Shown: one piece after another, positions 21,898-50,640 of the stretch | Numbering within the stretch: the stretch's first letter is position 1 | Layout: each line of letters starts with the position of its first letter | Source: Vicinamibacterales bacterium | Lineage (GTDB): Bacteria > Acidobacteriota > Vicinamibacteria > Vicinamibacterales > UBA2999 | DNA: 64,000 nt | Assembly: GCA_050742535.1 (NCBI GenBank) | Contig: JBOGIQ010000002.1 | Location: forward strand, 1,575-65,574 | Direction: 5' to 3' | Notes under the pieces: model-generated | Told to the model about the DNA's origin: nothing | Databases searched by the model: none | The model's input: the letters and a program-made list of their open reading frames with translations, nothing else | Made by a program: the position numbers and the translations under genes

Positions 21898-21907
21898 GGC
21901 ACGCGCC

Positions 21908-23836
21908 GTGATGAAGAACCGCAAACTGCAGTTCCTTCTCGGTCCCGTCCTCGTCCTCGTGCTGTTCGGGGCGGTGGTCCAGATGGCCTCGTGGCTGATG
22001 AGCCGTGAGTACAAAGAGCCTTACGGAGCCCCTGCGGCGACGGTGGACTCCACGCCACGCGCCGCGGGACTGGCTGACGAAAAGGCTGACACAGAGGCGA
22101 GGGCCAAGGCGAAGCTGTACGAGGAGGCCGAATATCGGACCTTTCCAGTCGTTGGGAGCCGCGTAGCCATTTGGTCGGTCGCGCAGCTCCACCTGCTGTT
22201 CGCGGCGTTCGTCCTTGCCGTTCCGCTGTTCGCATTCATCATCGAGGTGATCGGCTACAAGACCGGAGATCTCCGATACGACAAGCTCGCGCACGAGTTC
22301 ACGAAGCTCCTGTCCGTCTCCTTCTCGCTCACGGCGACCTTCGGCGCGTTCCTGACGTTCATGCTGATCGCGCTGTACCCGAAGTTCACGAACTATCTGA
22401 TGAGCGTGTTCTCTCCCACGTTTCTCCCGTACGTACTGCTCTTCTTTGCCGAGGCGGGCTTCCTCTACACCTATTACTACGGCTGGGGGAAGTTCCATCC
22501 GCTGGTCCACCTTGGTTTAGGGCTCGGCCTGAACCTCGTGGGTACGGCGATCATGTTCATCGCCAATGCCTGGCTGACGTTCATGATGTCGCCGAACGGG
22601 GTCTCGGATACGGGGGCGGTGATCTCCGTCATGGACGCGGTCTACAACTTCACGTGGATGCCGATCAACGTCCATCGAGTGATCGCCAACGTCGCGTTCG
22701 GCGGATCGGTCGCGGCCGCCTACGCGGCCTTCAAGTTCCTCCAGGCGAAATCCGACGAGGAGCGCGCGCACTACGACTGGATGGGTTACATCGGGAACTT
22801 CGTCGCCATCAGCGCCTTCCTTCCGCTTCCCTTCGCCGGATACTGGCTCGCGAGTGAGATCTACGCCTATTCGCAGACGCTCGGGCTGACGATGATGGGC
22901 GGAGCCTTCTCATGGCTCTTCATCATTCAGGCCGTTCTGATCGGGAACCTCTTCCTCGCCGCCAACTTCTATCTCTGGCTCGGGATGGGACGTGTCGAGG
23001 AAGCGCAGCCGCTGCAGAAGTTCGTCAAGTACCTGCTCATCGCGATCGCGATCTGCTTCGCGGTCTGGGCGACACCGCGATCGATCATCGCGACGGTCTC
23101 CGAGCTCCGGGCGATGGGCGGATCGGCACACCCCGTTCTCGGCTTTCTCGGCGTCATGTCCGCCAAGAACACCGCCGTGAACATCCTGATCCTCACGACC
23201 TTCATGAGCTTCCTCCTCTATCGCCGGACAGGGAAGGTCGCCACGGTGCCGTGGGCGAAAACGGGCCATGCGGCGCAGCTCACGATCTTCGCCGCCGCCG
23301 CGATCTTCGTCATCTTCCTCGGCGTCTACGGGTACTTTGTCGAGGCGAGCGTCAGGATTGGCCTGTCGGTGCCCCAGGTCGGTTCGGTTCTGTTCGCGAT
23401 GGTGGCCATCACCGCGATCGACATCTTCCTCTTCCGCGGGGCGAAGACGGCCGCGGTGCGCTGGGGAAGGGTCCCGGCCAGTTCCCAGTACGTGCTGATT
23501 TTCATCGCGGTCACGTTCACGTGGCTCATGGGACTCATGGGCTACGTTCGCTCCGGGCTCCGCCAGCACTGGCATGTCTACGGCGTCATTCGGGACAACT
23601 CGCCCGACGCGTTCACGCCCACCCTCGGCTTCGCGACGCAGGTTGTCTCGGTGACCGTGCTGATCTTCTTCTTCCTGATCGGCTTCGTGTTCTGGCTCGC
23701 GAGCCTGCACGAGCGAGCCGAGCATCGAGCATATGCGCCATCACCCCAGAAAGGGCCGCACACGGGCGTGGACGTGGTTCTCGATGGCGCGCGCCTCTCC
23801 GCGCCGAACGTCGAGGGGCGCACCGGGCTGTCATGA
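21908..23836 (+). CDS. Cytochrome bd subunit I (CydA) superfamily homolog, ~14 TM, no Q-loop, no adjacent CydB
   Basis: 642 aa. Blocks alignable by eye to E. coli CydA: AQLHLLFAAFVLAVPL (H19 region), LLFFAEAGFLYTYYYGWGKF (conserved Glu region), FIANAWLTFMMSPNGV (ANGWMQNP-like), NVHRVIANVAFGGSVAAAYAAF (H186 region). There is an extra N-terminal TM and about 7 extra C-terminal hydrophobic segments. Confidence 0.8.
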   Translation: MMKNRKLQFLLGPVLVLVLFGAVVQMASWLMSREYKEPYGAPAATVDSTPRAAGLADEKADTEARAKAKLYEEAEYRTFPVVGSRVAIWSVAQLHLLFAAFVLAVPLFAFIIEVIGYKTGDLRYDKLAHEFTKLLSVSFSLTATFGAFLTFMLIALYPKFTNYLMSVFSPTFLPYVLLFFAEAGFLYTYYYGWGKFHPLVHLGLGLGLNLVGTAIMFIANAWLTFMMSPNGVSDTGAVISVMDAVYNFTWMPINVHRVIANVAFGGSVAAAYAAFKFLQAKSDEERAHYDWMGYIGNFVAISAFLPLPFAGYWLASEIYAYSQTLGLTMMGGAFSWLFIIQAVLIGNLFLAANFYLWLGMGRVEEAQPLQKFVKYLLIAIAICFAVWATPRSIIATVSELRAMGGSAHPVLGFLGVMSAKNTAVNILILTTFMSFLLYRRTGKVATVPWAKTGHAAQLTIFAAAAIFVIFLGVYGYFVEASVRIGLSVPQVGSVLFAMVAITAIDIFLFRGAKTAAVRWGRVPASSQYVLIFIAVTFTWLMGLMGYVRSGLRQHWHVYGVIRDNSPDAFTPTLGFATQVVSVTVLIFFFLIGFVFWLASLHERAEHRAYAPSPQKGPHTGVDVVLDGARLSAPNVEGRTGLS

Positions 23837-24516
23837 CAATCCCGCTCGTTGCCCGGATTGGCGTTCTCGTCCTCGCGACGACTGCGTTCTATGGCTACGT
23901 CGGCCAGATGGTGCCTCAAAGCGAAGTTCAGCCTCCCGAGGAGATCGCCATCAGAGCCGACCTCACGACGCCAGAGATGGTCGAGATCGGCCGCGAGATC
24001 GCTGACGGTAAGGGCCTGTGCCGGACCTGCCACACGATCGGCCAGAGCGGTGCGCTCCGGTTCCCCGACCTCGCTGGAGTCGCCGGTCGCGCGGCGGAGC
24101 GCGTCCAGGGCCTGAGCGCTCTCGACTACTTCGCCCAATCGCTGTACGAACCTGACGCCTTCGTTGTGCCGGGATTCAATCCGGGGATGCCGACGATCAA
24201 CAGGCCCCCGATTGGCCTGACCGATCAGGAGATCCTCTGCGTGATCGCGTACCTCCAGTCTCTTGGCGGCACGCCGACGGTCACGCTCCAGACGAGCCAC
24301 CGCTACTACGCCGCGCCGGCCACGCCGGGTGCGGCGCCGCCTGGCGCCGCGGCAGGCGCACCCGTTACGACGCCGGCCGCACCGGGCGTACCGGGTACCA
24401 CGCCGGCCGCTCCGGGCGCTCCGCAGAAACCCGAGCCTGGCCAGCCGTTGCCTCTTACCCGGCCACCAGCCGAGCCGGCTCCCGCGGCCCCTGCGAGAGG
24501 AGCGGTCACACGATGA
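23833..24516 (+). CDS. Membrane-anchored monohaem cytochrome c with Pro/Ala-rich tail
   Basis: ATG 23833 (ATGA overlap with the upstream stop). N-terminal TM IGVLVLATTAFYGYV, a single CRTCH, and a downstream GMP Met-ligand candidate. Only the distal 227 codons of track ORF 22912-24516 are credible. Confidence 0.8.
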   Translation: MTIPLVARIGVLVLATTAFYGYVGQMVPQSEVQPPEEIAIRADLTTPEMVEIGREIADGKGLCRTCHTIGQSGALRFPDLAGVAGRAAERVQGLSALDYFAQSLYEPDAFVVPGFNPGMPTINRPPIGLTDQEILCVIAYLQSLGGTPTVTLQTSHRYYAAPATPGAAPPGAAAGAPVTTPAAPGVPGTTPAAPGAPQKPEPGQPLPLTRPPAEPAPAAPARGAVTR

Positions 24517-25331
24517 ACATCCTCGTCGTCGTCGCGGTTGTTGCCGCGTTCGGGCTTCTCCGCTTTCGTCGGGCCAACCTGCTGTTGTGGGCCATCGCCT
24601 GGTGGGCGGGGATTTACGTCCTGCTCCGATTCGGATTCACGATCCCGATTCCCGCCTCCGTCATCTCGATCTACATGGGAATTGTCTCTCTCGCGATCCT
24701 GGCGTACATGTCTTCCAGTCAGGAACGCCGCGAAGAGGTCTCCCGCCCGCTCATCCGGTTGATGACCGAGAAGCGGTACACCGCGCTCCTCGCCGCAACG
24801 GCGATTGCCATACCGGCGCTCGCAGCCGCGAACGTCTACGTCAAGTTGAATGTCCCCCTCGAGCCTCCGTTCTTTCCGCGAACGATCCATCCGGCATCGC
24901 CTTCCGAGATCAGGGTTCACGACAAGACGATCCCGATCGACGCTGGAGACAACCCCTTCAGACAACTCGAACGATCGAATCCGGAAGAGTTCCGCAGGCA
25001 CGTAGAAAACGGGCGCCAGGTCTACTACCGGAACTGCGTCTTCTGCCACGGCGACAACCTGGGGGGCAACGGCATGTTCGCGCATGCGTTGAACCCGATC
25101 CCGACCAATTTCGCCGACGGGCAGACGCTCCCGAATCTCAGCGAGACGTTCCTGTTCTGGCGAATCTCCAAGGGAGGACCGGGGATGCCCGACGAAGGGG
25201 CGCCATGGGACACGGCCATGCCCGCCTGGGAGAAGTTCCTCAAAGAAGAAGAGATGTGGGACGTGATTCTCTTTCTCTACGATTTCACAGGCCAGAGGCC
25301 CGCTGTGCGCGCCCTGGAGGCCGCGCACTGA
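24513..25331 (+). CDS. Polytopic (about 4 TM) membrane protein with C-terminal monohaem cytochrome c domain
   Basis: 272 aa, ATGA overlap at 24513. Four N-terminal hydrophobic segments, then CVFCH and GGPGMP...MPAW typical of class I cytochrome c. Confidence 0.8.
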   Translation: MNILVVVAVVAAFGLLRFRRANLLLWAIAWWAGIYVLLRFGFTIPIPASVISIYMGIVSLAILAYMSSSQERREEVSRPLIRLMTEKRYTALLAATAIAIPALAAANVYVKLNVPLEPPFFPRTIHPASPSEIRVHDKTIPIDAGDNPFRQLERSNPEEFRRHVENGRQVYYRNCVFCHGDNLGGNGMFAHALNPIPTNFADGQTLPNLSETFLFWRISKGGPGMPDEGAPWDTAMPAWEKFLKEEEMWDVILFLYDFTGQRPAVRALEAAH

Positions 25332-27034
25332 TGCGACCCCGACTGATGTCGCGCGCGTGTTTCGCGGCTCTGGTCGCCTGGTTGTGCGCCGGGATGGGAT
25401 CCGTGCGCCCGCAGGGGCAGGGTCCCGACGTCGGCACCGAAGCGCAGCGGGAGTCGGGCAAGAACCTGTATCTCAAGTACTGCTCGCAGTGCCACGGCGA
25501 CAAAGGGGACGCCGCGGGCTACGCTACACCGCATCTGCTCCCCCGGCCCCGCGACTTCACGCAGGGCAAGTTCAAGGTTCGCACGACCCCGAGCGGAGCG
25601 CTCCCGAGCCATCAGGATCTCGTCAACATCATCAGGCTGGGCATGCCCTATACCTCGATGCCCGCCTGGCCCGACTTGTCGGACGGGGAGGTGTCGGATC
25701 TCGCCTACTTCCTGACCACGTTCTCCGCCGACTTCTCGAACCCTGAGCGTGTGCCGCCGCCGATGGAGCTCCCGGGTGCGCCGAGCTCGACGAACGAGTC
25801 CATCGAGCTCGGAAAGAAGCTTTACGTGGATACCGGCTGCATCAAGTGCCACGGCAACCTCGGTCGGGGCGATGGACCATCGGCCCCGACGCTGACGGAC
25901 GACCTGGGGCAGCCAATACGGGCAGCAGACCTCACGCAGAGCTGGACCTTCCGGGGAGGATCCTCCCGCGAGGATATTTTCCGGACGATGACCGCGGGGT
26001 TCAACGGCACGCCAATGCCGTCGTTTGTCGACAGCCTCTCGACAGAGCAGCGGTGGGCGATTACGGACTATATAGCCTCGCTCTCGGGGAGCAACGGGCC
26101 TGGCTATACCAATCTCGTCATTGCGAAGCCGGTCCAGGATCCAATCGATTTGGAGAAAGGGGCTGCAAGCTTCGAATCTGCTCCGGTGGCCCGCTTCCCG
26201 ATCATCGGACAGATTACGGAGCCCGGACGCTCGTTTCATCCTCCCGCGACCTCCATGACGGTTCAGGCCATCTACGACGCCGAGTCGATCGCCCTTCTCG
26301 TTCGATGGCACGACATGAGCGCGGACAAGGCTGGAAAGAACGGGCCGACGCTTCCCGTGCCGCCGGAGGAGGAAGAGTCGGCGCCGGCAGGTGCGCAGAA
26401 GGCCGGAGAGAGCCCGTTTGGCGATGCGGAACTCGCGCCAGCTCAGAAGACCGAAACGGACCCCTTCGCCGAGGAAGCACCAGCCGTCCCGGCATCCGAG
26501 TTCTCCGACGCGGTCTCGATTCAGGTTCCCTCGCAGGTGCCGGCCGGCTCTCGCAAGCCCTATTTCATTCTTGGTGACACCCAGAGCTCGGTGGATCTCT
26601 GGTTCTTCGACCTGGCCCGCAACGGACCCCTTCAGTTCACCGGCCGGGGAAGCGCGGACGTCTCGCCCAACGACACGGGCGATCTCACCGGTGTCGCGAG
26701 CTACGACCAGGGACAATGGTCGGCCATCTTCAAACGGCCCCTTCGCGCCAGCTCGGGTGCCCCGTTGTCGCCCGGGCAGTTCATGCCGGTCGCCTTTTCG
26801 GTCTGGGACGGGTTCTCCCGCGAGCGTGGCAACCGGCGTGGTCTCACGGTCTGGCAGTCTCTCTACCTCGAGCCGGAAGCGGTTCCGTCGGTGATCGGTC
26901 CGATGGTGAGGATTGCCCTGATCATTCTTGCTATCGAACTCATCGTCATCGGCTTGGTGCGCTGGCGTTACGGCTCACGCGCCCGCGGGGCGCTCGGTGG
27001 TGACCCAAGTCAACCGGCAGCCACGCGAGCGTGA
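25331..27034 (+). CDS. Dihaem cytochrome c fused to an EB_dh (ethylbenzene dehydrogenase gamma / DOMON-like haem-binding) domain, C-terminal TM anchor
   Basis: ATG 25331 (TGATG overlap). Signal peptide; CSQCH and CIKCH. C-terminal half shows the EB_dh-like pattern (IYDAESIALLVRWHD..., WSAIFKRPL..., VAFSVWDGFSRERGNRRGLTVW). Final TM IALIILAIELIVIGLV. The upstream 356 codons of track ORF 24263-27034 are an out-of-frame artefact. Confidence 0.75.
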   Translation: MRPRLMSRACFAALVAWLCAGMGSVRPQGQGPDVGTEAQRESGKNLYLKYCSQCHGDKGDAAGYATPHLLPRPRDFTQGKFKVRTTPSGALPSHQDLVNIIRLGMPYTSMPAWPDLSDGEVSDLAYFLTTFSADFSNPERVPPPMELPGAPSSTNESIELGKKLYVDTGCIKCHGNLGRGDGPSAPTLTDDLGQPIRAADLTQSWTFRGGSSREDIFRTMTAGFNGTPMPSFVDSLSTEQRWAITDYIASLSGSNGPGYTNLVIAKPVQDPIDLEKGAASFESAPVARFPIIGQITEPGRSFHPPATSMTVQAIYDAESIALLVRWHDMSADKAGKNGPTLPVPPEEEESAPAGAQKAGESPFGDAELAPAQKTETDPFAEEAPAVPASEFSDAVSIQVPSQVPAGSRKPYFILGDTQSSVDLWFFDLARNGPLQFTGRGSADVSPNDTGDLTGVASYDQGQWSAIFKRPLRASSGAPLSPGQFMPVAFSVWDGFSRERGNRRGLTVWQSLYLEPEAVPSVIGPMVRIALIILAIELIVIGLVRWRYGSRARGALGGDPSQPAATRA

Positions 27035-27060
27035 GCTGTTGCGGGCAATCCGGAGGAGTC

Positions 27061-29070
27061 ATGTACAAGAGCATCTACGTTCCCGTCGATAACTCGGACC
27101 ACTCCAACCGCGCCGTCACCTGCAGCCTCGCGCTCGGGAAGGCGTTCTCGGCGAAGCTGGTCGGCTGTCATGTCTACGCGGCACAGCTGCACGACTATCG
27201 CTTCAGGCAGATGGAGTACACCCTGCCCGAGGAGTACATCGACGAGGTGGAACTGGAGCGCCAGCGCAAGATCCACGACAGCCTCATCACGATGGGCCTC
27301 AAGCTCATCTCCGACAGCTATCTCGATGGCATGTCGCGCCAGTGTGGCGAGTCGGGCCTGGCGTTCGAGCCGCGGATGATGGACGGGAAGCATCACACGG
27401 AGATCCTCAAGGATCTCGCCGGCTCACCGCACGACCTGGTCGTAATCGGCGCATTAGGCATCGGGCGCGCCAAGGACAGCGTCATCGGCTCCGTGTGCGA
27501 ACGCGTGGCTCGCCAGTCCGACCGCGATGTCTGGGTGGTCAAGCACGTCCCCGAGCCGGGCGAGGCCGAGCGGGACACGATCCTCGTTGGCATCGACGGC
27601 AGCCCGCAGTCGTTCGGCGCCCTCATGACCGCCATCGACCTCGCACGCTCGTTCGGGAAGAAGGTCGAAGCGATCGCTGTCTACGACCCCTATCTGCACT
27701 ATTCCGTGTTCAACGGCATCGTCAACGTCCTCACCGAGCAGGCGGCGAAGGTCTTCCGCTTCGAGGAGCAGAATCAGCTGCACGAGGAGATCATCGATAC
27801 GGGCCTCGCGCAGATCTACCAGTCACATCTCGAGGTCGGCGAGCGGATGGTGAGCGAAACAGGCATCGAGATCAAGAAGACGCTGCTCGACGGCAAGCCC
27901 TTCCAGAAAATCATCGACCACGCGCGGAAAACGAATCCGTGGCTGATCGTGCTGGGACGGATCGGCGTCCACAGCCCGAAGGGCGAGACCAGTCTCGGGA
28001 GCAACGCGGAGAACATCCTCCGCTCCGCGCCATGCGACGTCCTCCTCTCCACGCGGCTCGAAGTGCCGCGCCTCGACCTGCGCGCCGAAGAAACCATCAG
28101 ATGGACGCCTGAAGCCGAGGCGCGGATGACGCACGTGCCCGAGCAGGTCAAGGGCATCGCGCGCACCGGCGTCCTCCGGCTGGCGCTCGAGAAGGGACAC
28201 TCCGTGATCACGAGCGCGGTGATCGACGAAGCGATGGATCGGTTCATGCCGAAGAGTGCCTCGGCCGCGACGAAAGCGCTGGCCGAGGCGGTGGCTCTCG
28301 AGCGGGCGAAGTCCGGCCCGGTGTCGATGTGCCGGTCGTGCGGCGTCGCGGCGACGCAGAGTGGCGCCGTCAAGTGCACCGTGTGCGGTTCCACGGACTT
28401 CGAGGTGATCTCGCAGGAGATGATCGAGAAGATTGCGGCCGCCGAGGGAGGCCTCGAGGAAGAGACGACCTACGACGGACGCAAGCTCCGCTGGTCCGAG
28501 GACGCGAGGAAGGGCCTGTGGACCATGAAGAACGCGTATCAGCGCCGCCGCGTCAAGGCGCGTGTCGAAAAACGCGCGCGCATGATGAAGCTCGATGCAA
28601 TCACGCTCGACTTCGCGCGGCAGGTGATCGAGGAAGAAACCGGAGCGCCGCTGGAGATCCAGGTTCGTACTGCGCCACTCCCTGAGAGCGCCGCGGCCGC
28701 AACGGGCGAAGCCCGGCTCGTGGTCCGCGACGACAAGAAGAACCCGTTGATCTCGACCTTCGATTGGACGAGTGATGCCGCACAACGCATCCTGCGCGTG
28801 CCGGCCGGCTTCATGCGGAACCAGACGCAGGAGCGGATCGAGGAGCTTGCGCGGGAACGCGCCGCGTCAACCATCGACCTGGCGCTCGTCGAGGAGGGCA
28901 TCGAGATCGGCAAGAAGATGATGGCCGAGATGATCGCGACCTATCAGGGCCCGTCATCGGCGAAGCCCGCGGCTGCGACACCGCGTGCGTCGGTCAGCGG
29001 CAACGGCAATGACAGCGGGTATCTCAATGAGGTGAGCCCGCTCACGGCACGCAGTGCGTCTGAGGGGTGA
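27061..29070 (+). CDS. Tandem universal stress protein (Usp) domains fused to three PCP_red (BchB/ChlB C-terminal-like) repeats
   Basis: ATG 27061 is preceded by GGAGGAG (27052-27058). Usp-type starts MYKSIYVPVDNSDHS and ILVGIDGSPQS. The three ~45-aa repeats are IRWTPEAEARMTHVPEQVKGIARTG..., LRWSEDARKGLWTMKNAYQRRRVKAR..., FDWTSDAAQRILRVPAGFMRNQTQER.... A CxxC..CxxC knuckle (CRSCG...CTVCG) sits between repeats 1 and 2. Confidence 0.75.
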   Translation: MYKSIYVPVDNSDHSNRAVTCSLALGKAFSAKLVGCHVYAAQLHDYRFRQMEYTLPEEYIDEVELERQRKIHDSLITMGLKLISDSYLDGMSRQCGESGLAFEPRMMDGKHHTEILKDLAGSPHDLVVIGALGIGRAKDSVIGSVCERVARQSDRDVWVVKHVPEPGEAERDTILVGIDGSPQSFGALMTAIDLARSFGKKVEAIAVYDPYLHYSVFNGIVNVLTEQAAKVFRFEEQNQLHEEIIDTGLAQIYQSHLEVGERMVSETGIEIKKTLLDGKPFQKIIDHARKTNPWLIVLGRIGVHSPKGETSLGSNAENILRSAPCDVLLSTRLEVPRLDLRAEETIRWTPEAEARMTHVPEQVKGIARTGVLRLALEKGHSVITSAVIDEAMDRFMPKSASAATKALAEAVALERAKSGPVSMCRSCGVAATQSGAVKCTVCGSTDFEVISQEMIEKIAAAEGGLEEETTYDGRKLRWSEDARKGLWTMKNAYQRRRVKARVEKRARMMKLDAITLDFARQVIEEETGAPLEIQVRTAPLPESAAAATGEARLVVRDDKKNPLISTFDWTSDAAQRILRVPAGFMRNQTQERIEELARERAASTIDLALVEEGIEIGKKMMAEMIATYQGPSSAKPAAATPRASVSGNGNDSGYLNEVSPLTARSASEG

Positions 29071-29921
29071 GCTCGTACCGCTTTTGCCGCACCGATGACA
29101 TCGGGCTACTCGTCGACGCGCTGAATCGCTGTTGGCTGCCGTACTTTCCCGACGAGGGGCCGATGACGCCGGCCGCGTTCAAGCGGTCGATCCGCGACCT
29201 GCAGGTGTGGTGCAGCAGCTGCATGGTCGCCTTCTCGGGGTCCGACCCGATCGGCGTCCTGATCGGCGCCAAGCGGCCTTCCGGAACCCTCGTCCATACA
29301 CTCGCGGTCCATCCCGATCATCGGCGTCAGGGTCATGGGCGCCACCTGCTCGCGTCGCTCGGCTCGAAGCTCGCGATCCTCGGCCCCCCGAGAATTGCCG
29401 CTGAGGTCCCCGAGACTCTCGCGCCTGCCTGCGCGCTGTTCGGCGCAAGCGGGTATGTCCAGGAAGCGCTGCTGACAGACTACGTCTCGCAGCGAGCAGC
29501 CGAAGACAGTGAAACCCGTCAAGGGTTCGTCATCCCGGTCACGGTTGACGATCTCGCGGCCAATGACCTCCTTGGACAGGTGCAACCGCAGGTCTGCTGG
29601 AATCGCTCCGTCGAGACGCTCACGGCAAGGAAGGACGAGATCGCAGGACTCGCCGTCGCCTCCGACGAGCGAATCGAGGCCTTTATTCTCTACGTGATGA
29701 ACGGCATAAAAGAGACCGAGATTCTATCGCTCCGCTCCTTCATCGAGGACGGTGGCGCCCGCTTGAAGCAGCTGCTCTCTCAACTCCACGCGCGAGGCGT
29801 TGAGACCTTCCGGTTCCCGAAGGTCCACCCGGCCGAGATCTCGAAGGAGTGGCTGGAGACGCTCGGGTTCCGCGCTGCCGGCAGGCACCTGCTCTATGCA
29901 GCGAAGGCGCGGTCCGACTAG
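29067..29921 (+). CDS. GNAT-family N-acetyltransferase
   Basis: 284 aa, GTGA overlap with the upstream stop. Acetyl-CoA motif LAVHPDHRRQGHGRHLLASL. Confidence 0.7.
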   Translation: MSSYRFCRTDDIGLLVDALNRCWLPYFPDEGPMTPAAFKRSIRDLQVWCSSCMVAFSGSDPIGVLIGAKRPSGTLVHTLAVHPDHRRQGHGRHLLASLGSKLAILGPPRIAAEVPETLAPACALFGASGYVQEALLTDYVSQRAAEDSETRQGFVIPVTVDDLAANDLLGQVQPQVCWNRSVETLTARKDEIAGLAVASDERIEAFILYVMNGIKETEILSLRSFIEDGGARLKQLLSQLHARGVETFRFPKVHPAEISKEWLETLGFRAAGRHLLYAAKARSD

Positions 29922-29984
29922 ACGATTTCGTTCGCGCTTCGATTCGCGTACCATCGGCTCGACACATTTCCGGAGGCGTCTCGC

Positions 29985-30350
29985 ATGAAACCGTTGGCCC
30001 TGCTCGCACTCGTCGCCGCCATAAGCGTGCGACTCGTGTTTGCCGCCGATGTCAGCGGCAGGTGGACAGCGCAGACGCCTGCAAGGGGTGGGGGAACCGA
30101 TACGACGACGTTCGATTTCCGCGTCGACGGAAAGAGGCTGACCGGCGTCGTCAAGATGGCGGGCCGCGATTATCCGATCAAGGAAGGCGCGATTGAGGCC
30201 GAGACCGTTCGCTTCCATATCACCGTCAACATCGGACGCGAGATAAAGTTCGTTCACACCGGAGCGGTTGCGGGCGAGGTGATTCGCTTTACGCGCGCGC
30301 TCGAAGGCATGGGCCGGAAGTCCACCTTCGTGGCCAGACGCACCAAGTGA
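29985..30350 (+). CDS. Small secreted hypothetical protein
   Basis: 121 aa. Signal peptide MKPLALLALVAAISVRLVFA followed by a beta-rich sequence. No family recognised. Confidence 0.55.
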   Translation: MKPLALLALVAAISVRLVFAADVSGRWTAQTPARGGGTDTTTFDFRVDGKRLTGVVKMAGRDYPIKEGAIEAETVRFHITVNIGREIKFVHTGAVAGEVIRFTRALEGMGRKSTFVARRTK

Positions 30351-30433
30351 GATTTGGGTCCTGCTCTCGGCTCAAGACTGAGGGCGCGGCCGACAAGAAC
30401 GATTAACAGGCTCGGTGTAAGCTACGCGGCATC

Positions 30434-31318
30434 GTGAAGCGCTATCACGACATCGTCGGCGACGGAGGGTCGAGAGTCCTCGAGCAGGTTGCCGCGCAGC
30501 GGACCCGCATCACGGAGGGGCTCGCCGAGGTGCGCCATCTCGTGGCCGTGGGGTCCGGCAAGGGGGGAGTCGGCAAGAGCACGTTGACTCTGCATCTCGC
30601 GGGCGCTCTGCGGGCCCGGGGGCTGCGGATTGCGATCCTGGACGCGGACTTCAACGGCCCCTCACAGGCGCGCATGGCCGGTGTCCTGGGGGCCTTGTTC
30701 GTGCCTGGCACCCGCAAGGTCGCGCTCCCGCGGACCAGGAACGGGATCGCGGTGTTCTCGATGGGCTCGCTGATTCCGGAGTCGCAAGCGCTCGAGTTCG
30801 AAAGCGCGGCGGACGGTGAGTCTCATACGTGGCGTGCCACGAGGGAGTTCGCTCTCCTCGGCGAGGTCCTCGCGTCCTTCGAGTGGGGAGCGCTCGATCT
30901 GCTGATGTTCGACCTGCCGCCGGGAGCGGAGCGTACCGTCCAGTACGCCGATTTTCTCGGGCCCCGGACGTCATTCCTGCTCGTGACGATCCCTTCCGAC
31001 GTGGCACGGGGCGTGGTCGCGCGCTCGGCAGCAGCGCTGTCGAAGGGACGCAATCGCCTCCTCGGTTACGTCGAGAATATGAGCGGCTACTACTGTCGCG
31101 ACTGCGACGCGATCAAGCCCCTCTTCGATACGGGGCAGGACAGCCCGTCGCACCTTGAGATCCCCTGCCTCGGTACCGTCCCATTCGATCCGGAGCTTGC
31201 GCGGCACTGCGATCGGGGGATCCCGCTCGCGGAACGGACCGAAACGCCCGTTGGCAGGGCCCTGGAGCGTGTTGCGCAGCAACTTCTGGAAAGCCTCGAA
31301 TTGGAGCCGCCAAGATGA
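30434..31318 (+). CDS. Mrp/NBP35/ApbC-family P-loop ATPase (Fe-S cluster carrier-like)
   Basis: Deviant Walker A VGSGKGGVGKSTLTLHLA and the ENMS..C..C motif (VENMSGYYCRDCDAIKPLF). GTG start. Confidence 0.85.
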   Translation: MKRYHDIVGDGGSRVLEQVAAQRTRITEGLAEVRHLVAVGSGKGGVGKSTLTLHLAGALRARGLRIAILDADFNGPSQARMAGVLGALFVPGTRKVALPRTRNGIAVFSMGSLIPESQALEFESAADGESHTWRATREFALLGEVLASFEWGALDLLMFDLPPGAERTVQYADFLGPRTSFLLVTIPSDVARGVVARSAAALSKGRNRLLGYVENMSGYYCRDCDAIKPLFDTGQDSPSHLEIPCLGTVPFDPELARHCDRGIPLAERTETPVGRALERVAQQLLESLELEPPR

Positions 31319-31755
31319 AGTTTCTCTGCGTCCCTTGCGACAGCCCGATGAAGCTGCAAACCGTCGGGCCGCCCGAACGGGGCTCGCTGTCGATCGTCTA
31401 TGCGTGTCCTGAGTGCGGCTACGAGATGGCCATGCTCACGAACGCGTACGAGACACAGGTCGTCCAGTCTCTCGGCGTGCGGGTCGGTGTAGAGAGCGGC
31501 AGTGGGAGCGCGGCCGAACCGAACAAGTGCCCGTTCCCGGCGATGATCCCGTCGACGGAGGGTGCCCGACCCGGGCAGACTGGCGAGCCGATCCCCGTCC
31601 GGTGGACTGCCGCCGCGGAAGCCCGGCTCGCGAACATTCCTGAGTTCGTTCGTCCGATGGCGCGAACCGGCATCGAGAGATTTGCTCGCGAAAGGGGAGC
31701 CCTGGAAGTAGACGAGACGATCCTCGACGCGGCCCGTGACTTCTTCGGCATGTAG
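31315..31755 (+). CDS. Zinc-ribbon protein with C-terminal PCP_red domain
   Basis: 146 aa, ATGA overlap with the Mrp stop. CVPC...CPEC ribbon. C-terminal VRWTAAAEARLANIPEFVRPMARTGIERFARERGALEVDETILDAARDFFG closely resembles the BchB/ChlB C-terminal motif (W..EAE..L..IPFFVRGK.RRNTE.FAR..G). Confidence 0.8.
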   Translation: MKFLCVPCDSPMKLQTVGPPERGSLSIVYACPECGYEMAMLTNAYETQVVQSLGVRVGVESGSGSAAEPNKCPFPAMIPSTEGARPGQTGEPIPVRWTAAAEARLANIPEFVRPMARTGIERFARERGALEVDETILDAARDFFGM

Positions 31756-31764
31756 GCGATCGCG

Positions 31765-33168
31765 ATGAACTTGGAAGGATTTGCCCGTCCCTACGTCGTT
31801 TCCTGGAACCTCACCTACCGCTGCAACCTCGCCTGCGAGCACTGCTATCTCGACGCTGGCCCGACGCGTCTGGTCGGCACGGAGAACTTTGCCGATCGGA
31901 GCGAGCTCGGCACCGAGGAATGCTTCAGGGTCATTGACGACATCGCCGCATTTGCGCCTGAATGCCTCACGATCCTGACCGGCGGCGAGCCGCTCTTACG
32001 GCGCGACATACTCGAAATCGTCCAGCGCGCCGCGGAGCGTGGACTGTGGGTCGTCGTCGGCACCAACGGCGTGCGCATCACGGAGAACGTGGCGCGGCGC
32101 CTGGCGGAGGCCGGAGCACGGGGCCTCTCCCTTTCCCTCGACGCACTCGATGCCGACAGTCACGACCGTTTCAGGAAGGTGCGTGGCGCCTGGCACAACA
32201 CCGTGGAGGGCGCGGAGATCCTCAATCGGACCGGGCTCCCCTTCATCGTCCAGACCACTGCGGGCTCGCACAATATCGGCGCGCTCGAAGCGATTGCCGA
32301 TTTCGCGCACGATCGCCTCGCCGCCAAAGTGTGGAACCTCTACTTCCTGGTGCCGACGGGGCGCGGGCAGTTCGTCTCCGACATGACCCCAGCGCAGTAC
32401 GACGAGGTGCTCGCCTCTCTCTACCGAATCCAGCAGAAGTACAACCGCCGGATGCTCGTGAACGCGAAGTGCGCACCGCACTACATCAAGACCGTGCTGG
32501 AGAATGCCCACCTTCGCCAAGGCTCCGGCGGGCAAGCCGGCGATGAAACCGATTCGACGTCCCCCATCAGGACCTACTCGGGAGGGGCCGGCGGGTGCCC
32601 GGCGGGGACGCACTATATGGGTATACGTCCGAACGGGGATGTCACGCCCTGCCCATACCTCCCGGTCTTCGCCGGCAACCTTCGCCGGTCGCCGCTCGCC
32701 GAGCTCTGGACGTCATCGGAGCTGTTCGCCAATATTCGCCGTCGCACCTCGCTCGGCGGGCGATGCGGGGAGTGCGAGATGAACGGACACTGCGGGGGCT
32801 GCCGCGCCAGGGCCTACGGGATGACCGCCGATCTGATGGCCGAGGATCCCCTATGTACCCACACCCCAGGGAAGTTCGCCGGGTCCCCGCTCCTGGTGCT
32901 TCGCGGCCCAAACGGCTCTCGTCCGCCCTCGCCCCTTCGGGGCTACGGCGACACGCCGCCGTTGATCGAGTACGGCGGCGAATCGCCGCCGACTATCGCC
33001 TGGGATGAAGCAGCCGCCACCCGCATGAAGAACGTCCCCGCGTTCGTCCGCGGAATGGTCATCAGGGCCGTCGAGGAATCCTGTCGCAAGGAAGGGCTGG
33101 ATCGTGTAACCGTCGAGGAGCTCGAACGGATCCGCGCACGGATGCCAACCCCAAAGCTCTTCAGATAG
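31765..33168 (+). CDS. Radical SAM / SPASM-domain enzyme (NirJ/AhbC/AhbD-like) with C-terminal PCP_red domain
   Basis: CNLACEHCY radical-SAM cluster motif, TGGEPLLRRD, GTNG. SPASM Cys pattern GCPAG...GDVTPCPY...CGECEMNGHCGGCRARAY...DPLC. C-terminal IAWDEAAATRMKNVPAFVRGMVIRAVEESCRKEGLDRVTVEELERIRARMP. Confidence 0.85.
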   Translation: MNLEGFARPYVVSWNLTYRCNLACEHCYLDAGPTRLVGTENFADRSELGTEECFRVIDDIAAFAPECLTILTGGEPLLRRDILEIVQRAAERGLWVVVGTNGVRITENVARRLAEAGARGLSLSLDALDADSHDRFRKVRGAWHNTVEGAEILNRTGLPFIVQTTAGSHNIGALEAIADFAHDRLAAKVWNLYFLVPTGRGQFVSDMTPAQYDEVLASLYRIQQKYNRRMLVNAKCAPHYIKTVLENAHLRQGSGGQAGDETDSTSPIRTYSGGAGGCPAGTHYMGIRPNGDVTPCPYLPVFAGNLRRSPLAELWTSSELFANIRRRTSLGGRCGECEMNGHCGGCRARAYGMTADLMAEDPLCTHTPGKFAGSPLLVLRGPNGSRPPSPLRGYGDTPPLIEYGGESPPTIAWDEAAATRMKNVPAFVRGMVIRAVEESCRKEGLDRVTVEELERIRARMPTPKLFR

Positions 33169-33480: not shown

Positions 33481-34290
33481 CTACCGGAAGGGGTCCGATG
33501 CAGTCTCGGACTGTGACTTAACCTCTGCGTCCATCCACGTCTGGAACTCCTCGGCGCTCTGAACGGTGACAAACCCGCGCATTCGCGCGTGGCCCAAGCC
33601 ACAAAGCTGTGCGCACGCGATCTCGTACTGGAACGTGGGATTCCCCGTTTGGGCCCGCATCTGCTCGGTGGTGACGGTCGGGACGAACCAGATGGGGATC
33701 GTCAGGCCGGGCACGGCGTCCTGCTTCACTCTGAACTCGGGCACGCCGAAGCTGTGGATGACGTCCTTGCTCCTGAGCTGCACGATGATCGGCCTGTTCG
33801 CCGGCAGATACAGCTGATTCACTGTCGTGACGTCGTCTTTCCCGGCGGGATCCGAGCGATCGAGTCCCAGCGGGTTCGACTGCAGATCGAGCAGCTTGAC
33901 GTCGGTGCGGCCGAATGCCCTGTCGGGGCCTGGATAGTGCATGTTCCAGGCGAACTGTTCGCCGGTCACCTGAACGATCAGCGCTTCGTTCTCCGGGGGC
34001 ATGTTGCCGATCCTCGCAGCCCACAGCGGAATCGCGAATCCGAACAGGAGAACCGCTTCGACGACGGCGACGCCGATTTCGGCATAGTTCGACGCGTGCG
34101 ACTTGACCCCCGTGTAGTTCGCCACGGGATTCCGCGATCGCCGGAATCGGATCAGGCAGTAGATGAAGAACCCACTCCACCCGACGAACAGGACGAGCAT
34201 GAACACGTGGATCCAGCCGATCATGCCGTCAATCTGGGCGCCGTGTGCCGTGGCGATCGACGGGAGTCCTAGCCAATCCCAATTAGTCAT
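33481..34290 (-). CDS. coxB: Haem-copper oxidase subunit II (CuA, no cytochrome c domain)
   Basis: Two N-terminal TMs. CuA ligand pattern HSFGVPEF...CAQLCGLGHARM. The start is placed at ATG 34290 (ATGA overlap with the upstream small ORF); ATG 34311 is the alternative. Confidence 0.9.
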   Translation of the reverse strand: MTNWDWLGLPSIATAHGAQIDGMIGWIHVFMLVLFVGWSGFFIYCLIRFRRSRNPVANYTGVKSHASNYAEIGVAVVEAVLLFGFAIPLWAARIGNMPPENEALIVQVTGEQFAWNMHYPGPDRAFGRTDVKLLDLQSNPLGLDRSDPAGKDDVTTVNQLYLPANRPIIVQLRSKDVIHSFGVPEFRVKQDAVPGLTIPIWFVPTVTTEQMRAQTGNPTFQYEIACAQLCGLGHARMRGFVTVQSAEEFQTWMDAEVKSQSETASDPFR

Positions 34291-34571
34291 GATTTTTGGA
34301 GCTCCGACCATTCAGTGTCGAGCTCGACGTCGGCGATGTGCTTCGCGCGTCGTCGGAGATAGAGAAAGAAGCCCACGAACCCGCCCTGCACCGTCAGCGT
34401 GACGCACAGCAGCGCCATGATCCCAAGCCTGGTCCCGTCGATGATCGACGTTTCGTGCGCCCCGAAGCAGACCGGGCAGGCCAGGGCGTTCGAACTGCTG
34501 CCGATCACCATGACCGCTGCCATCAGTAGAACCCGCATGATGACGAGACGGATCGATTTCGTCTTCTTCAT
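34287..34571 (-). CDS. Small membrane protein with CPVC motif (hypothetical)
   Basis: 94 aa from ATG 34571 (MKKTKS...). Signal/TM segment, CPVCFG, then a second TM. ATGA overlaps at both ends tie it into the oxidase operon. The longer track ORF (to 34787) overlaps neighbouring genes. Confidence 0.5.
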   Translation of the reverse strand: MKKTKSIRLVIMRVLLMAAVMVIGSSSNALACPVCFGAHETSIIDGTRLGIMALLCVTLTVQGGFVGFFLYLRRRAKHIADVELDTEWSELQKS

Positions 34572-35696: not shown

Positions 35697-37460
35697 TCAG
35701 GCCTCGTGCTGCGCCGTGAAGTCCCTGGCCGCGCCGGGAACGCTGTACTCGTAGGGCCCGCGGTACGCCTGCGGGGCGACGACGAAATTGCCGTGCGGCG
35801 GGGGCGAGGGAGCCGCCCACTCGATCGTCGTGGCGTGCCAGGGGTTGTCCTCGGCTGTCTCCCCCTTCCAGATGCTCCAGAAGAAATTGAAGATGAAGGG
35901 AATCTGGAAGATCCCGAGCATCCACGCGCCCCACGACGAGACGACGTTCCAATGCATGGTCGGCTGTGCAAAGTCGTAGGCCGATCCAGCGTCGAACAGG
36001 CGTCGCGAGACGCCGGCCATCCCGATGATGAACATCGGCATGAAGACGACGTTCATGAAGGCGAACGAGCCGGCGAAGTGGATCTTGCCGAGCGTCTCAT
36101 TCATCTTCCGCCCCGTTGCCTTCGGGAACCAATAGTAGATCCCCGCGAAGAGGGCGAAGATCGTCCCCGGAGCGACGACGTAGTGGAAGTGGGCGATCAC
36201 GTAGTACGTGTCGTGCAGAGGGATGTCCGCGATGTTGAAGGCAAGCGGCAGCCCCGTCAGCCCGCCGATGCCGAACATCGGGAGAAAGGCGACCGCAAAC
36301 AGCATCGGCGTGTTGAAGCGGATCGATCCGCCCCAGAGCGAGATGATCAGCGCCGTGAGGATCACGACTGACGGGATCGAGATGATCATCGTCGTCGTCT
36401 GGAAGAACGCCGCCATCGCCGTCCCCATGCCGGTCATGAACATGTGGTGCGCCCAGACGATGAACGACATGAAGCCGAGGAAGACGAGCGAGTAGACCAT
36501 CGAGCGATAGCCCCACAGCGGCTTCCGCGTGTTGTTGGCGATGATCTCGGCCACGATTCCCATCCCTGGCAGAATCAGGACGTAGACCTCCGGGTGCGCC
36601 AGAAACCAGAACAGGTGCTGCCAGAGCAGCGCGTTGCCTCCGCCGGCGCTTTCGAGCGGCTGCCCGCTGACGATGAGACCGCCTGGGTTGAAGAAGGCCG
36701 TGCCGGCGACACGATCCATCAGCTGCATGACGCCCGCGGCCTCGAGCGGCGGGAAGGCCAGGAGCAGGAGGAACGCCGTGACGAACTGCGCCCAGACGAA
36801 GAAGGGGAACCGCATGAAGGTGAGCCCCTTCGCGCGGATCTGGATCGTTGTCGTGATGAAATTGAGCGCCCCGAGCAGGGATGAGGTGATCAGGAAGATC
36901 ATCCCGATGAGCCACCACGTCTGACCCGTGCCCGCGATGCTGGCGAGGGGCGCGTAGGAAGTCCAGCCGGACTGCGCCGCGCCGCCAGGGACGAAGAAGC
37001 TGCCGAGCATCGTGATGCCACCGAGGAAGAGGCACCAGTAGCTCACCATGTTGATCTTCGGGAACGCCATGTCCGGGGCGCCAATCTGGAGCGGGAGCAC
37101 GAAGTTCCCGAATCCGCCGACGGCGAGTGGGACCACGCCGAGGAAGACCATGATGGTGCCGTGCATCGCCCCGAGCTCGTTGTAGAACTCAGGGAGCATC
37201 GTCCCGCCCGGCATGCGCGCTTCGCCGAACAGCTGGCCGATCAGCGGCAGCGCGGCACCCGGGTAGGCGAGCTGCCAGCGCATGAGCATCATCAGCGAAA
37301 AGCCGAACAGGAGAAACAGCATGCCGGTGACGGCGTACTGGATGCCGATGACCTTGTGGTCGGTGGAGAAGACGTACTTGCGCCAGAAGCCGAGTTCTTC
37401 GTGATGGACTTCGTGCGCGACGTGCGTCTTTGATGGGGCGACGCCTGTTGAATCACTCAT
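35697..37460 (-). CDS. coxA: Haem-copper oxidase subunit I, A1-type
   Basis: 587 aa. STDHKVIGIQY, WFLAHPEVYVLILPGMG (helix VI Glu and Tyr retained), HHMF, HDTYYVIAHFHYV. Confidence 0.95.
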   Translation of the reverse strand: MSDSTGVAPSKTHVAHEVHHEELGFWRKYVFSTDHKVIGIQYAVTGMLFLLFGFSLMMLMRWQLAYPGAALPLIGQLFGEARMPGGTMLPEFYNELGAMHGTIMVFLGVVPLAVGGFGNFVLPLQIGAPDMAFPKINMVSYWCLFLGGITMLGSFFVPGGAAQSGWTSYAPLASIAGTGQTWWLIGMIFLITSSLLGALNFITTTIQIRAKGLTFMRFPFFVWAQFVTAFLLLLAFPPLEAAGVMQLMDRVAGTAFFNPGGLIVSGQPLESAGGGNALLWQHLFWFLAHPEVYVLILPGMGIVAEIIANNTRKPLWGYRSMVYSLVFLGFMSFIVWAHHMFMTGMGTAMAAFFQTTTMIISIPSVVILTALIISLWGGSIRFNTPMLFAVAFLPMFGIGGLTGLPLAFNIADIPLHDTYYVIAHFHYVVAPGTIFALFAGIYYWFPKATGRKMNETLGKIHFAGSFAFMNVVFMPMFIIGMAGVSRRLFDAGSAYDFAQPTMHWNVVSSWGAWMLGIFQIPFIFNFFWSIWKGETAEDNPWHATTIEWAAPSPPPHGNFVVAPQAYRGPYEYSVPGAARDFTAQHEA

Positions 37461-37479: not shown

Positions 37480-38202
37480 CTACTTCACGGCGAACTTGAA
37501 GTTCTGGCTCTTGGTATCGCTGCCGGTAACCGTCACCGAGGCCGTCTGCGTCCCCAGCCTCTCGTGCCAGGCGGTGATCTCGTAGGTCCCCTTGTCGAGG
37601 CCCGAGATCGTGAACTTCCCGTCCGCGCTCGTTACCGCAAAGAAGGGATGGCTGAAGACGCCGATGTAAGCAATCATCCACGGGTGAACGTCGCACTTGA
37701 CCTGTAACATCGCCTCCGGCTTGGGGAACGACGTGGTCATCTCCTTGACCGTCGCCGGCTGCCCCCGGTTGAACGCCGGGTTGATCTTGGGAAGCGTGTG
37801 GATGTTGTGGAGGATGCCGTCGGAGTTGAGGATCCTGTAGGACTGCCCGACCATGATCCCCGTGATGCGCGGCTTGTACACACAGCCGTCCTGGTTAAGA
37901 ACCACCGGGGTCTTGGGAGCAGGCCATGTCTTTCCAGCTGGAAGCCCCTTCGACACCCAGATCATGATGTTCCCCATGGTGTTGCCGCTGCCGAGGACCA
38001 GCATCTCGTTTGGCGCGGGTTTTCCCGAGTGTTTCTTGTGGCACACGGGTTCGGCGTCCATCGCGAGCGGCTTGAGATTAGGGGCTTTCCCGTCGAAGGC
38101 AACGGTACCGGTGATGGTCGACGCAGCCACAGCGACACCCGGCCAGAGCAACACCCCAACGAACCCAACCGCCAGCCACAACCCGTTCCGTGTCCCGCGC
38201 AT
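37480..38202 (-). CDS. Secreted cupredoxin-like (type 1 copper) protein with CarboxypepD_reg-like C-terminal domain
   Basis: Signal peptide. Candidate T1Cu ligands are His in GILHNIH and an amicyanin-like C-x2-H-x2-M loop (KCDVHPWM). C-terminal ADGKFTISGLDKGTYEITAWHERLG. AAGGAG SD upstream. Confidence 0.7.
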   Translation of the reverse strand: MRGTRNGLWLAVGFVGVLLWPGVAVAASTITGTVAFDGKAPNLKPLAMDAEPVCHKKHSGKPAPNEMLVLGSGNTMGNIMIWVSKGLPAGKTWPAPKTPVVLNQDGCVYKPRITGIMVGQSYRILNSDGILHNIHTLPKINPAFNRGQPATVKEMTTSFPKPEAMLQVKCDVHPWMIAYIGVFSHPFFAVTSADGKFTISGLDKGTYEITAWHERLGTQTASVTVTGSDTKSQNFKFAVK

Positions 38203-38347
38203 GTTCAGCTCCTTCGGTTATCGCAACATTGGTCTCCGTCGTCGCCGTCGACGCTGCTCGCTCACATACCTGCGGCGGACTCTACACTGATCCCAGCCAT
38301 CCCAGCAAGGCTCAGAGCTCCGCCGTTGCCAGGCTCCGGTGGACAGG

Positions 38348-42437: not shown

Positions 42438-42500
42438 GGCGAGCGACCGTATGACTCACTGCCACGGATTGTCAAGCACGTGAAGAGGAAGGAGGGAATA

Positions 42501-44933: not shown

Positions 44934-44940
44934 CCCGCCC

Positions 44941-48044
<3,104 letters not shown>

Positions 48045-48045
<1 letters not shown>

Positions 48046-50023: not shown

Positions 50024-50030
50024 ATCAGCG

Positions 50031-50639: not shown

Positions 50640-50640
50640 C

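Follow-up and report, generated by a model that had tools for sequence, protein, structure and literature searches.

Gene organisation of the locus

We analysed a 64,000-nucleotide (nt) stretch of DNA from a Vicinamibacterales bacterium (assembly GCA_050742535.1, contig JBOGIQ010000002.1, positions 1,575 to 65,574 of the forward strand), which is called the window below and has a G+C content of about 64%. The subject is a gene set at 27061-33168 that encodes three proteins with PCP_red domains (Pfam PF08369), one of them a radical SAM/SPASM enzyme, and that probably supplies or tailors haem for the neighbouring terminal oxidases. The best 80 genomic matches to the radical SAM gene came nearly all from Vicinamibacteria/Vicinamibacterales or unclassified Acidobacteriota metagenome-assembled genomes. 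On the plus strand, 17571-33168 forms one co-directional run of respiratory genes and the PCP_red set, with the following main features:

17571-27034, plus strand: upstream operon for an ActA-like multihaem cytochrome c, an ActB-like molybdopterin/Fe-S protein, a cytochrome c, a bd-like CydA, two cytochromes c and a dihaem cytochrome c with an EB_dh haem b domain (Pfam, NCBIfam)
21908-23836, plus strand: bd-like CydA, 642 residues
27061-29070, plus strand: Usp-Usp-PCP_red-zinc ribbon-PCP_red (degenerate)-PCP_red protein, 669 residues (Pfam Usp twice, 138 bits; PCP_red, 71.8 bits)
28099-28236, plus strand: PCP_red unit 1 of the Usp protein, residues 347-392 (54.7 bits with our own model; NCBIfam BchB C-terminus match at residues 342-394)
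28330-28386, plus strand: CxxCG...CxxCG zinc-ribbon or rubredoxin-like knuckle pair of the Usp protein, residues 424-442 (motif CRSCG..CTVCG; weak HypA match)
28489-28623, plus strand: degenerate PCP_red unit 2 of the Usp protein, residues 477-521 (below the Pfam gathering score when taken alone)
28765-28896, plus strand: PCP_red unit 3 of the Usp protein, residues 569-612 (the best Pfam stretch of this protein)
30434-31318, plus strand: Mrp/ApbC/NUBPL-type P-loop Fe-S carrier ATPase, 294 residues (Pfam ParA/NUBPL, PF10609, 174.5 vs 27.1 bits)
31315-31755, plus strand: zinc-ribbon (CVPCD...CPECG) and PCP_red protein, 146 residues (Pfam PCP_red, 57.9 bits, residues 97-141)
31765-33168, plus strand: radical SAM/SPASM enzyme of the AhbD/NirJ2 group with a C-terminal PCP_red domain, 467 residues (Pfam Radical_SAM, 79.8 bits; SPASM, 41.2 bits)
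32998-33135, plus strand: PCP_red domain of the radical SAM enzyme, residues 412-457, three helices (Pfam, 45.8 bits)

The first-pass annotation of the window, made from the letters before any database search, had named the Usp-Usp, GNAT, Mrp/NUBPL and radical SAM/SPASM proteins correctly, as judged by Pfam (138, 35.8, 174.5 and 79.8/41.2 bits, respectively). It had also described the genes as internally linked, and this holds for most of the set: 26 nt separate the dihaem gene from the Usp gene, whose ATG at 27061 is preceded by the Shine-Dalgarno sequence GGAGGAG, overlaps lie at 29067 (GTGA) and 31315 (ATGA), and the gap before 31765 is 9 nt long. However, the run is broken by gaps of 63 nt and 83 nt that flank a small secreted open reading frame (ORF; 29985-30350). 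A promoter and terminator scan of the locus was uninformative.

The bd-like CydA aligns at its N-terminus with solved CydA chains, the helix-1 histidine included, and is of the Q-loop-less, 14-helix kind that Murali et al. have named OR-N; such 14-helix, Q-loop-less oxidases have been described in Nitrospina, Nitrospira and Kuenenia. The surrounding operon at 17571-27034 resembles that of alternative complex III, with the 14-helix bd-like CydA in place of the NrfD-type membrane subunit, and the dihaem cytochrome c protein that closes it combines the EB_dh haem b domain with a C-terminal membrane anchor. On the minus strand a cox operon faces the PCP_red run, with COX2 at 33481-34311, COX1 at 35697-37460 and, further along, NrfD and ChdC-type genes.

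PCP_red units and their partner domains

The repeats seen at first reading, likened there to the C-terminus of BchB/ChlB, are indeed PCP_red: PF08369 passed its Pfam gathering score of 32.5 bits in all three proteins (71.8 bits in the Usp protein, 57.9 in the zinc-ribbon protein and 45.8 in the radical SAM protein), and the copy quoted as the best, VRWTAAAEARLANIPEFVRPMARTGIERFARERG, is located in the zinc-ribbon protein. Five copies had been counted. Four of them are clear, whereas the Usp protein has a degenerate middle unit, which reached only 20 bits when scored alone (E=7e-4). This unit 2 aligns in register over profile positions 1-42. It scored 34.4 bits (E=2e-11) against a family-specific hidden Markov model of 1,124 units, a score that is partly circular since iterative building may have drawn relatives of unit 2 into the model. 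An hhalign comparison of units 2 and 3, on 55-residue segments, gave a match (P=0.002) that was too weak to decide the status of unit 2. No further convincing PCP_red copy turned up when all six frames of the window were scanned.

The ~45-residue unit is common to the window proteins and the C-terminal domain of BchB/ChlB, and that of the radical SAM enzyme matches residues 442-503 of the ChlB chain 2xdq_B. In BchB/ChlB this terminal unit helps to close the pigment pocket. Unlike BchB/ChlB, the three window proteins are without the nitrogenase-like (Oxidored_nitro) body, and their unit is repeated and joined to Usp, zinc-ribbon and radical SAM domains. A subunit of dark protochlorophyllide reductase (BchB/ChlB) was accordingly rejected as a candidate, as only the last ~55 profile positions were matched, scoring 43 and 36 bits where the cut-offs are about 490-510.

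In the Usp protein, domain 1 contains GALGIGRAKDSVIGS, which fits G-x2-G-x9-G-S, presumably the ATP-binding motif of Usp proteins, and domain 2 carries the motif with one extra residue; with its two Usp domains and the nucleotide-binding glycine motif, the protein is of the tandem Usp type. Its relatives carry one to five PCP_red units, often together with a CxxCG...CPxC knuckle pair, and in these relatives the knuckle segment matches RUBY_RBDX, the rubredoxin-like rubrerythrin model of Pfam (37.1 bits; cut-off 26.5). The 'zinc ribbons' of the Usp and zinc-ribbon proteins might, judging from such motifs, bind iron and carry electrons instead of binding zinc. The knuckles of the window at 28330-28386 (CxxCG...CxxCG) and 31327-31416 (CxxC...CPxCG) are of the rubredoxin type. 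The Gemmatimonadales counterpart of the zinc-ribbon protein has an identical architecture.

The Mrp protein scored 155 bits with MrpORP and 109 bits with ApbC on NCBIfam, both below the equivalog cut-off. It shares with Mrp/ApbC/NUBPL carriers the deviant Walker A motif GKGGVGKS and the ENMS...CxxC bridging-cluster motif (ENMSGYYCRDC), and differs from them in that its gene is tied by the ATGA overlap to the gene for the zinc-ribbon protein.

The radical SAM enzyme belongs with AhbD and NirJ2

Among the NCBIfam models, AhbD ranked first for the radical SAM enzyme (301 bits), followed by NirJ2 (279.5), TIGR04053 (265), NirJ (163) and AhbC (153), whereas peptide-maturase models reached at most 138 bits, below their own cut-offs. 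These profile scores place the enzyme with tetrapyrrole enzymes and not with maturases, as the first-pass annotation had surmised; a grouping with peptide maturases, which that annotation had named as a refutation, was thus not observed. The enzyme remains below every NCBIfam equivalog cut-off (500 for both AhbD, TIGR04545, and NirJ2), and its relatives in other phyla score 301-312 bits with the AhbD model.

The radical SAM motif CX3CX2C (C20/C24/C27) is invariant in 20 close and 86 diverse sequences, and the complete set of SPASM cysteines (C278, C296, C334, C337, C343, C346 and C364) is invariant across the 86. The spacing C334-x2-C337-x5-C343-x2-C346-x17-C364 is exactly CX2CX5CX2CX17C, the C-terminal auxiliary-cluster motif given for AhbD by the Layer group (PMC10114771), and C278-x12-G-x4-C296, for a second auxiliary cluster, is also present. 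The radical SAM and SPASM architecture and the cysteine motifs are thus common to the window enzyme and AhbD/NirJ2; the window enzyme adds the C-terminal PCP_red domain (one to three copies in relatives), and its gene is accompanied by those for Usp-PCP_red and, in some lineages, for zinc-ribbon-PCP_red and Mrp proteins. On sequence grounds, it is a distinct subfamily inside the tetrapyrrole side-chain group and not a certified AhbD.

An AlphaFold model from 20 near-identical sequences was unusable (predicted local distance difference test, pLDDT, 46.6). The AlphaFold2 model based on the 86 diverse sequences (pLDDT 81, predicted template-modelling score 0.85) comprises a SPASM fold, a disordered linker and a three-helix C-terminal domain, with PCP_red helices at residues 415-423, 426-442 and 450-459 and block-mean pLDDT values of 83-95 over residues 411-460. 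Two low-complexity, length-variable insertions, at 32512-32589 (residues 250-275) and 32899-32979 (residues 379-405), lie between core and SPASM and between SPASM and PCP_red, respectively; they are modelled as disordered and reach about 80 residues in relatives. The best Foldseek matches of the model were the generic SPASM enzymes SuiB, PqqE, SkfB and CteB, because the Protein Data Bank (PDB) holds no AhbD or NirJ structure.

These structural matches, and the fact that SPASM enzymes are mostly peptide maturases, would suit a substrate other than a tetrapyrrole, for example a membrane lipid, or an oxidase subunit that receives a peptide or protein crosslink. The lipid variant has a precedent in Gms, the GMGT synthase, an AhbD homologue that is 36% identical to AhbD and yet modifies lipids (PMC11214058). 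Gms and the window enzyme lie at a similar distance from AhbD and each has an extra domain. That of Gms is an N-terminal, lipid-binding COG4001 domain of about 100 residues, and its gene has tes/mss neighbours (PMC11214058); that of the window enzyme is the C-terminal PCP_red domain, and the neighbours are oxidase and haem genes. We consider a non-tetrapyrrole substrate very improbable, given that the maturase models score so far below AhbD, that the only other known source of the PCP_red domain is a tetrapyrrole enzyme, and that hemY and chdC are among the neighbours; nor were a conserved precursor-type ORF or tes/mss genes noticed around the enzyme, although no systematic search for them was made. 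Two specific candidates were rejected. A peptide maturase was dismissed on its scores and because the only small ORF (29985-30350) is not conserved, and a Gms-type lipid enzyme because the protein begins only about 20 residues before its cluster motif (at residue 20), so that the N-terminal COG4001 domain is absent, and because the neighbours are oxidase, Usp and Mrp genes.

Breadth of the fusion family

The radical SAM-PCP_red fusion is abundant, with members in Vicinamibacteria, the anammox genera Brocadia, Scalindua and Loosdrechtia, Nitrospinota, Nitrospirota and Gemmatimonadales, and strongly conserved, with 77-90% identity within classes. In a search of 1.84 billion cluster representatives, full-length fusions were 41-48% identical to the window enzyme and unfused AhbD-like proteins 32-43%; a neighbour-joining tree separated the nine unfused AhbD-like representatives from every fused sequence (86% bootstrap support). 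A system has three to six PCP_red units distributed over several proteins, and the enzyme itself carries one to three. In Brocadia, an apparent fusion of a zinc ribbon to the enzyme was rejected, the match being due to the PCP_red repeats only. Two enzyme versions of about 800 residues (P0272 and P0271), encoded after Cyt_bd_oxida_I, cytochrome c and Usp-PCP_red genes, have a second Radical_SAM match after PCP_red and a faint tetrapyrrole-methylase match.

The number and spread of the PCP_red units would suit hand-off or docking, which raises the possibility that the radical SAM-PCP_red protein and its PCP_red partners carry or insert haem and do not make it. HemW sets a precedent: this haem chaperone has a radical SAM fold and delivers haem b to the respiratory protein NarI (PMC10114771). 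The module adjoins several kinds of haem-rich respiratory operons, and the G-x2-G-x9-G-S motif of Usp domain 1 could gate delivery. Invariance of the full AhbD-type catalytic and auxiliary cysteines in 86 diverse sequences is, however, what is expected of an active enzyme, and HemW belongs to the unrelated HemN/CgdH branch, so that a carrier role on the HemW model appears rather improbable.

The databases already label the enzyme 'AdoMet-dependent heme synthase'. In the literature, searches for PCP_red/PF08369 gave nothing relevant, and those for AhbD with anammox gave nothing; the papers on BchB that were found give no role for its C-terminal domain. The preprint of Murali et al. on the cytochrome bd superfamily does not mention radical SAM or Usp in its text or the supplements examined, and we found no paper on the PCP_red fusion, its Usp- and zinc-ribbon-PCP_red partners or their recurrent placement beside OR-N and cox operons. 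What is new relative to known AhbD is therefore the added PCP_red domain and the PCP_red-bearing partners.

Neighbourhoods of the fusion gene across lineages

Neighbouring genes were detected by tblastn and jackhmmer on stop-to-stop ORFs. Within Vicinamibacteria, 51 loci had at least 8 kb visible on both sides, and as loci of one class they are not independent. The genes found near the radical SAM gene were as follows:

Mrp: 51 of 51 loci
Zinc-ribbon-PCP_red: 50 of 51 loci
COX1 on the facing strand: 42 of 51 loci
Usp-PCP_red: 31 of 51 loci
Dihaem cytochrome c/EB_dh gene, the marker of the bd-like operon: 30 of 51 loci

The cydA-like gene, being situated at the flank's edge, was itself seen in 25 of these loci, and about 40% of them have no bd-like operon beside the trio of Mrp, zinc-ribbon-PCP_red and radical SAM genes. 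The order in this class (CydA..dihaem-Usp-GNAT..Mrp-zinc ribbon-radical SAM) thus consists of two modules, [bd-like operon-Usp-GNAT] and [Mrp-zinc ribbon-radical SAM], which are often parted by inserted genes.

We also sampled 80 more distant metagenome loci, being the best 80 matches to one query, ranked by similarity and mostly on short contigs. A CydA-like gene was present in the visible flank of 34 and Usp-PCP_red in 40 of the 80. When the loci were grouped into 43 lineage clusters at 80% identity, the counts were 20 for CydA-like and 22 for Usp-PCP_red, the commonest neighbour seen across phyla. Gemmatimonadales-type contigs have a single packed cluster, Mrp-zinc ribbon-Usp-radical SAM-CydA-like-c-c-dihaem/EB_dh-x-COX2-COX1-COX3. 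On one such contig (L127, 5781-19710), the gene x between dihaem/EB_dh and COX2 encodes a CarboxypepD_reg-domain protein; the bd-like and haem-copper oxidase genes of this cluster may be expressed together. Nitrospirota-type contigs have the order CydA-like-c-dihaem/EB_dh-Usp-radical SAM-HemY, and a further lineage has Cyt_bd_oxida_I-cytochrome c-x-x-Usp-radical SAM.

Elsewhere the bd-like gene is missing. Nitrospinota have the Usp-radical SAM pair only, Brocadia has the enzyme alone without adjacent oxidase genes, one lineage has Usp-radical SAM-Mrp directly after a haem-copper oxidase operon and no bd-like gene, in one group Usp-radical SAM stands among unrelated genes, and some loci are without a CydA-like gene despite full 10-kb flanks. 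Upstream of the Usp-radical SAM pair in a lineage without an oxidase neighbour (L108, 3371-7610), there are co-directional genes for an ODP-family di-iron metallo-beta-lactamase, a UbiE-type methyltransferase and a B12-binding radical SAM enzyme. The link to the bd-like operon is not obligatory. The expectation of the first-pass annotation that the set is co-conserved with the Q-loop-less cydA-like gene met with a mixed result: the gene is there in 20 of the 43 clusters and in three gene orders, and absent from others with full flanks.

The recurrent adjacency bears on the question of whether the module makes or inserts a special haem, chlorin-type or modified in its side chains, for the oxygen-reducing site of the bd-like (OR-N) oxidase. 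Genes of this kind are known: those of the haem o/a synthases CtaA/CtaB are often encoded with the oxidase (cox) genes that use the product. The bd-like operon adjoins the module in three gene orders, as it would for dedicated cofactor genes, and the lineage with Cyt_bd_oxida_I makes a fourth case. Chance is estimated to place a CydA-like gene at about 1% of loci, far below the frequencies found in the distant loci and clusters. Moreover, ChdC would already cover haem b synthesis in the genome of the window, and OR-N proteins have kept the histidine that ligates the haem of the active site. Each of the five lineages with the fusion has been reported to have 14-helix bd-like oxidases or OR-N genes; OR-N is listed in all five phyla concerned, but in 27 phyla altogether (Murali et al.).

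Against a special haem, the association is facultative, the loci are phylogenetically related and the metagenome sample is ranked by similarity and not random, and haem-copper oxidase genes are about equally frequent neighbours (42 of 51 Vicinamibacteria loci). No known chemistry joins AhbD-type propionate decarboxylation to a hydroxychlorin. To our knowledge, classic bd oxidase hosts such as E. coli have no PCP_red module, so that it cannot be a general haem d route. CtaA/CtaB, for their part, are membrane enzymes of unrelated folds, and their tailored product is known. We therefore regard a special haem, for which the CtaA/CtaB genes offer the analogy, as unlikely. The same doubt attaches to the fuller proposal in which the enzyme and the Usp- and zinc-ribbon-PCP_red proteins would form a dedicated pathway that makes or installs the active-site haem of OR-N oxidases in nitrite oxidisers, anammox bacteria, Acidobacteriota and Gemmatimonadota, with PCP_red domains as tetrapyrrole hand-off modules.

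A proposed oxygen-independent haem b step beside terminal oxidases

Two haem-biosynthesis genes occur near the enzyme. In the window there is the following gene, 8.5 kb from the radical SAM enzyme:

41649-42455, minus strand: ChdC/HemQ-type coproheme decarboxylase, 268 residues, at the head of the facing NrfD/cox operon (Pfam Chlor_dismutase, 185 bits)

On NCBIfam this protein scored 124.5 bits with HemQ_actino, below the cut-off of 235. Its best PDB matches are coproheme decarboxylases (E~5e-25), with chlorite dismutases at about 1e-17, and its YPF and ...H motif positions, which we take to be the catalytic tyrosine and proximal histidine, align with coproheme decarboxylase. Seven further loci of Vicinamibacteria have a ChdC-type gene in the same position. 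The presence of this gene makes it very likely, as far as its sequence tells, that the host makes haem through coproheme; it also means that a ChdC-type and an AhbD-type gene are found here at opposite edges of the respiratory island, one beside each oxidase operon. On Nitrospirota-type contigs, hemY directly follows the radical SAM enzyme (TIGR00562, 304 bits; cut-off 98). No ahbA/B/C or ferrochelatase genes were seen in the neighbourhoods of the enzyme.

AhbD-like enzymes of coproporphyrin-pathway organisms that are without the other Ahb enzymes have been described as converting coproheme to haem b free of oxygen, as an alternative to ChdC (PMC13564367, PMC10114771), and a conversion of this kind is simpler to assume than a new route to haem d. 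From the sequence features, we give about an even chance to the best reading, in which the set encodes an AhbD-type haem b synthase that works independently of oxygen, together with PCP_red partner proteins, and is attached to the operons of terminal oxidases. It is the best supported because of the precedent in the reviews, the exact AhbD motif, the adjacency of hemY, the strong conservation and the presence in strict anaerobes. The lead of AhbD and NirJ2 over the maturase models and the occurrence of PCP_red in the tetrapyrrole enzyme BchB/ChlB are consistent with it. Anammox bacteria, which are anaerobes, have the fusion without neighbouring oxidase genes; Usp-PCP_red is the commonest neighbour seen across phyla, and in one lineage the module stands after a haem-copper oxidase operon, with no bd-like gene. 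The abundance of the fusion and its 77-90% identity within classes are as expected of a core enzyme.

Several observations weigh against a haem b synthase. The enzyme reaches 301 bits where the AhbD cut-off is 500, and it is 32-43% identical to NCBIfam-checked unfused AhbD-like proteins, from which it is separated in the tree (86% bootstrap). In about 30 Gemmatimonadales-type contigs it stands directly beside the bd-like cydA gene, in the manner of dedicated cofactor genes, and the oxygen-dependent hemY fits badly with a purely low-oxygen role. We know of no need of AhbD, which acts alone, for Usp, zinc-ribbon or extra PCP_red partners. Gms, at a comparable distance from AhbD, has a lipid-modifying function (PMC11214058).

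Domain content, family placement, cysteine motifs, the conserved gene pairing and the neighbourhoods are direct observations; the substrate, the functions of the partners and the oxygen logic are inferences. If the enzyme is a haem b synthase, the gene set would be a cytoplasmic haem-maturation module attached to terminal-oxidase operons. The radical SAM enzyme would most likely decarboxylate two propionates of coproheme oxidatively and so yield haem b with no need for oxygen. The Usp-Usp-PCP_red and zinc-ribbon-PCP_red proteins would be its partners, docking to the enzyme or taking up the tetrapyrrole. From the domain architecture, we infer that the PCP_red units may bind tetrapyrrole or dock the proteins together, that the electron which AhbD has to release or accept may pass through the rubredoxin-like knuckles, and that Mrp may load the three Fe-S clusters of the enzyme. 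ChdC and the AhbD-type enzyme would then be the oxygen- or peroxide-dependent and the oxygen-free version of one step, each beside an oxidase operon. HemN/CgdH, the oxygen-independent coproporphyrinogen enzyme, and HemF/CgdC follow a like logic, in which an oxygen-free radical SAM enzyme and an oxygen-requiring enzyme serve one haem step, and hemN is often found beside genes of high-affinity cbb3 oxidases; HemN/CgdH, however, is of an unrelated radical SAM branch, acts on another substrate and has no PCP_red partners.

Nitrite oxidisers, manganese oxidisers and many soil bacteria have been proposed to use bd-like (OR-N) proteins as terminal oxidases, and a conserved, easily cloned gene pair beside these oxidases offers a direct experimental handle on their cofactors and assembly. 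The outcome would be either a partnered oxygen-free haem b synthase or a new haem, and either would give PCP_red its first role outside chlorophyll synthesis. Should the label 'AdoMet-dependent heme synthase' prove wrong, a blanket database annotation would be corrected.

Further genes of the set and of the window

Two genes lie between the Usp and Mrp genes:

29067-29921, plus strand: GNAT acetyltransferase, 284 residues, with a GTGA overlap with the Usp gene (Pfam Acetyltransf_1, 35.8 bits)
29985-30350, plus strand: small secreted protein, 121 residues, good codon bias, between the GNAT and Mrp genes (no Pfam or NCBIfam match)

The GNAT gene follows the Usp gene in 37 of the 51 Vicinamibacteria loci and was detected in three of the 80 more distant metagenome loci (L134, L142 and L156), all of them Vicinamibacteria-like. 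Among the loci sampled it is confined to Vicinamibacteria, and it may regulate the Usp protein; a mycobacterial Usp is reportedly the substrate of a GNAT. None of 82 related loci holds a homologue of the small secreted ORF, which is probably a lineage-specific insertion that is not part of the PCP_red set.

Beyond the facing cox operon, a second, canonical alternative complex III (ActB, NrfD, ActD and cytochrome c) is encoded at 44731-51861 on the plus strand. It is followed by an SCO1/SenC gene and a second COX1 that passes the CtaD equivalog cut-off (54251-55957, plus strand). With two operons of the alternative complex III type and the oxidase genes, the 64-kb window therefore forms a dense respiratory island. 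A C-terminal CarboxypepD_reg/fn3_3 protein is encoded beside cox genes in three lineages, at 37480-38217 on the minus strand of the window, at 15823-16548 on contig L127 and at 6617-7774 on contig L166.

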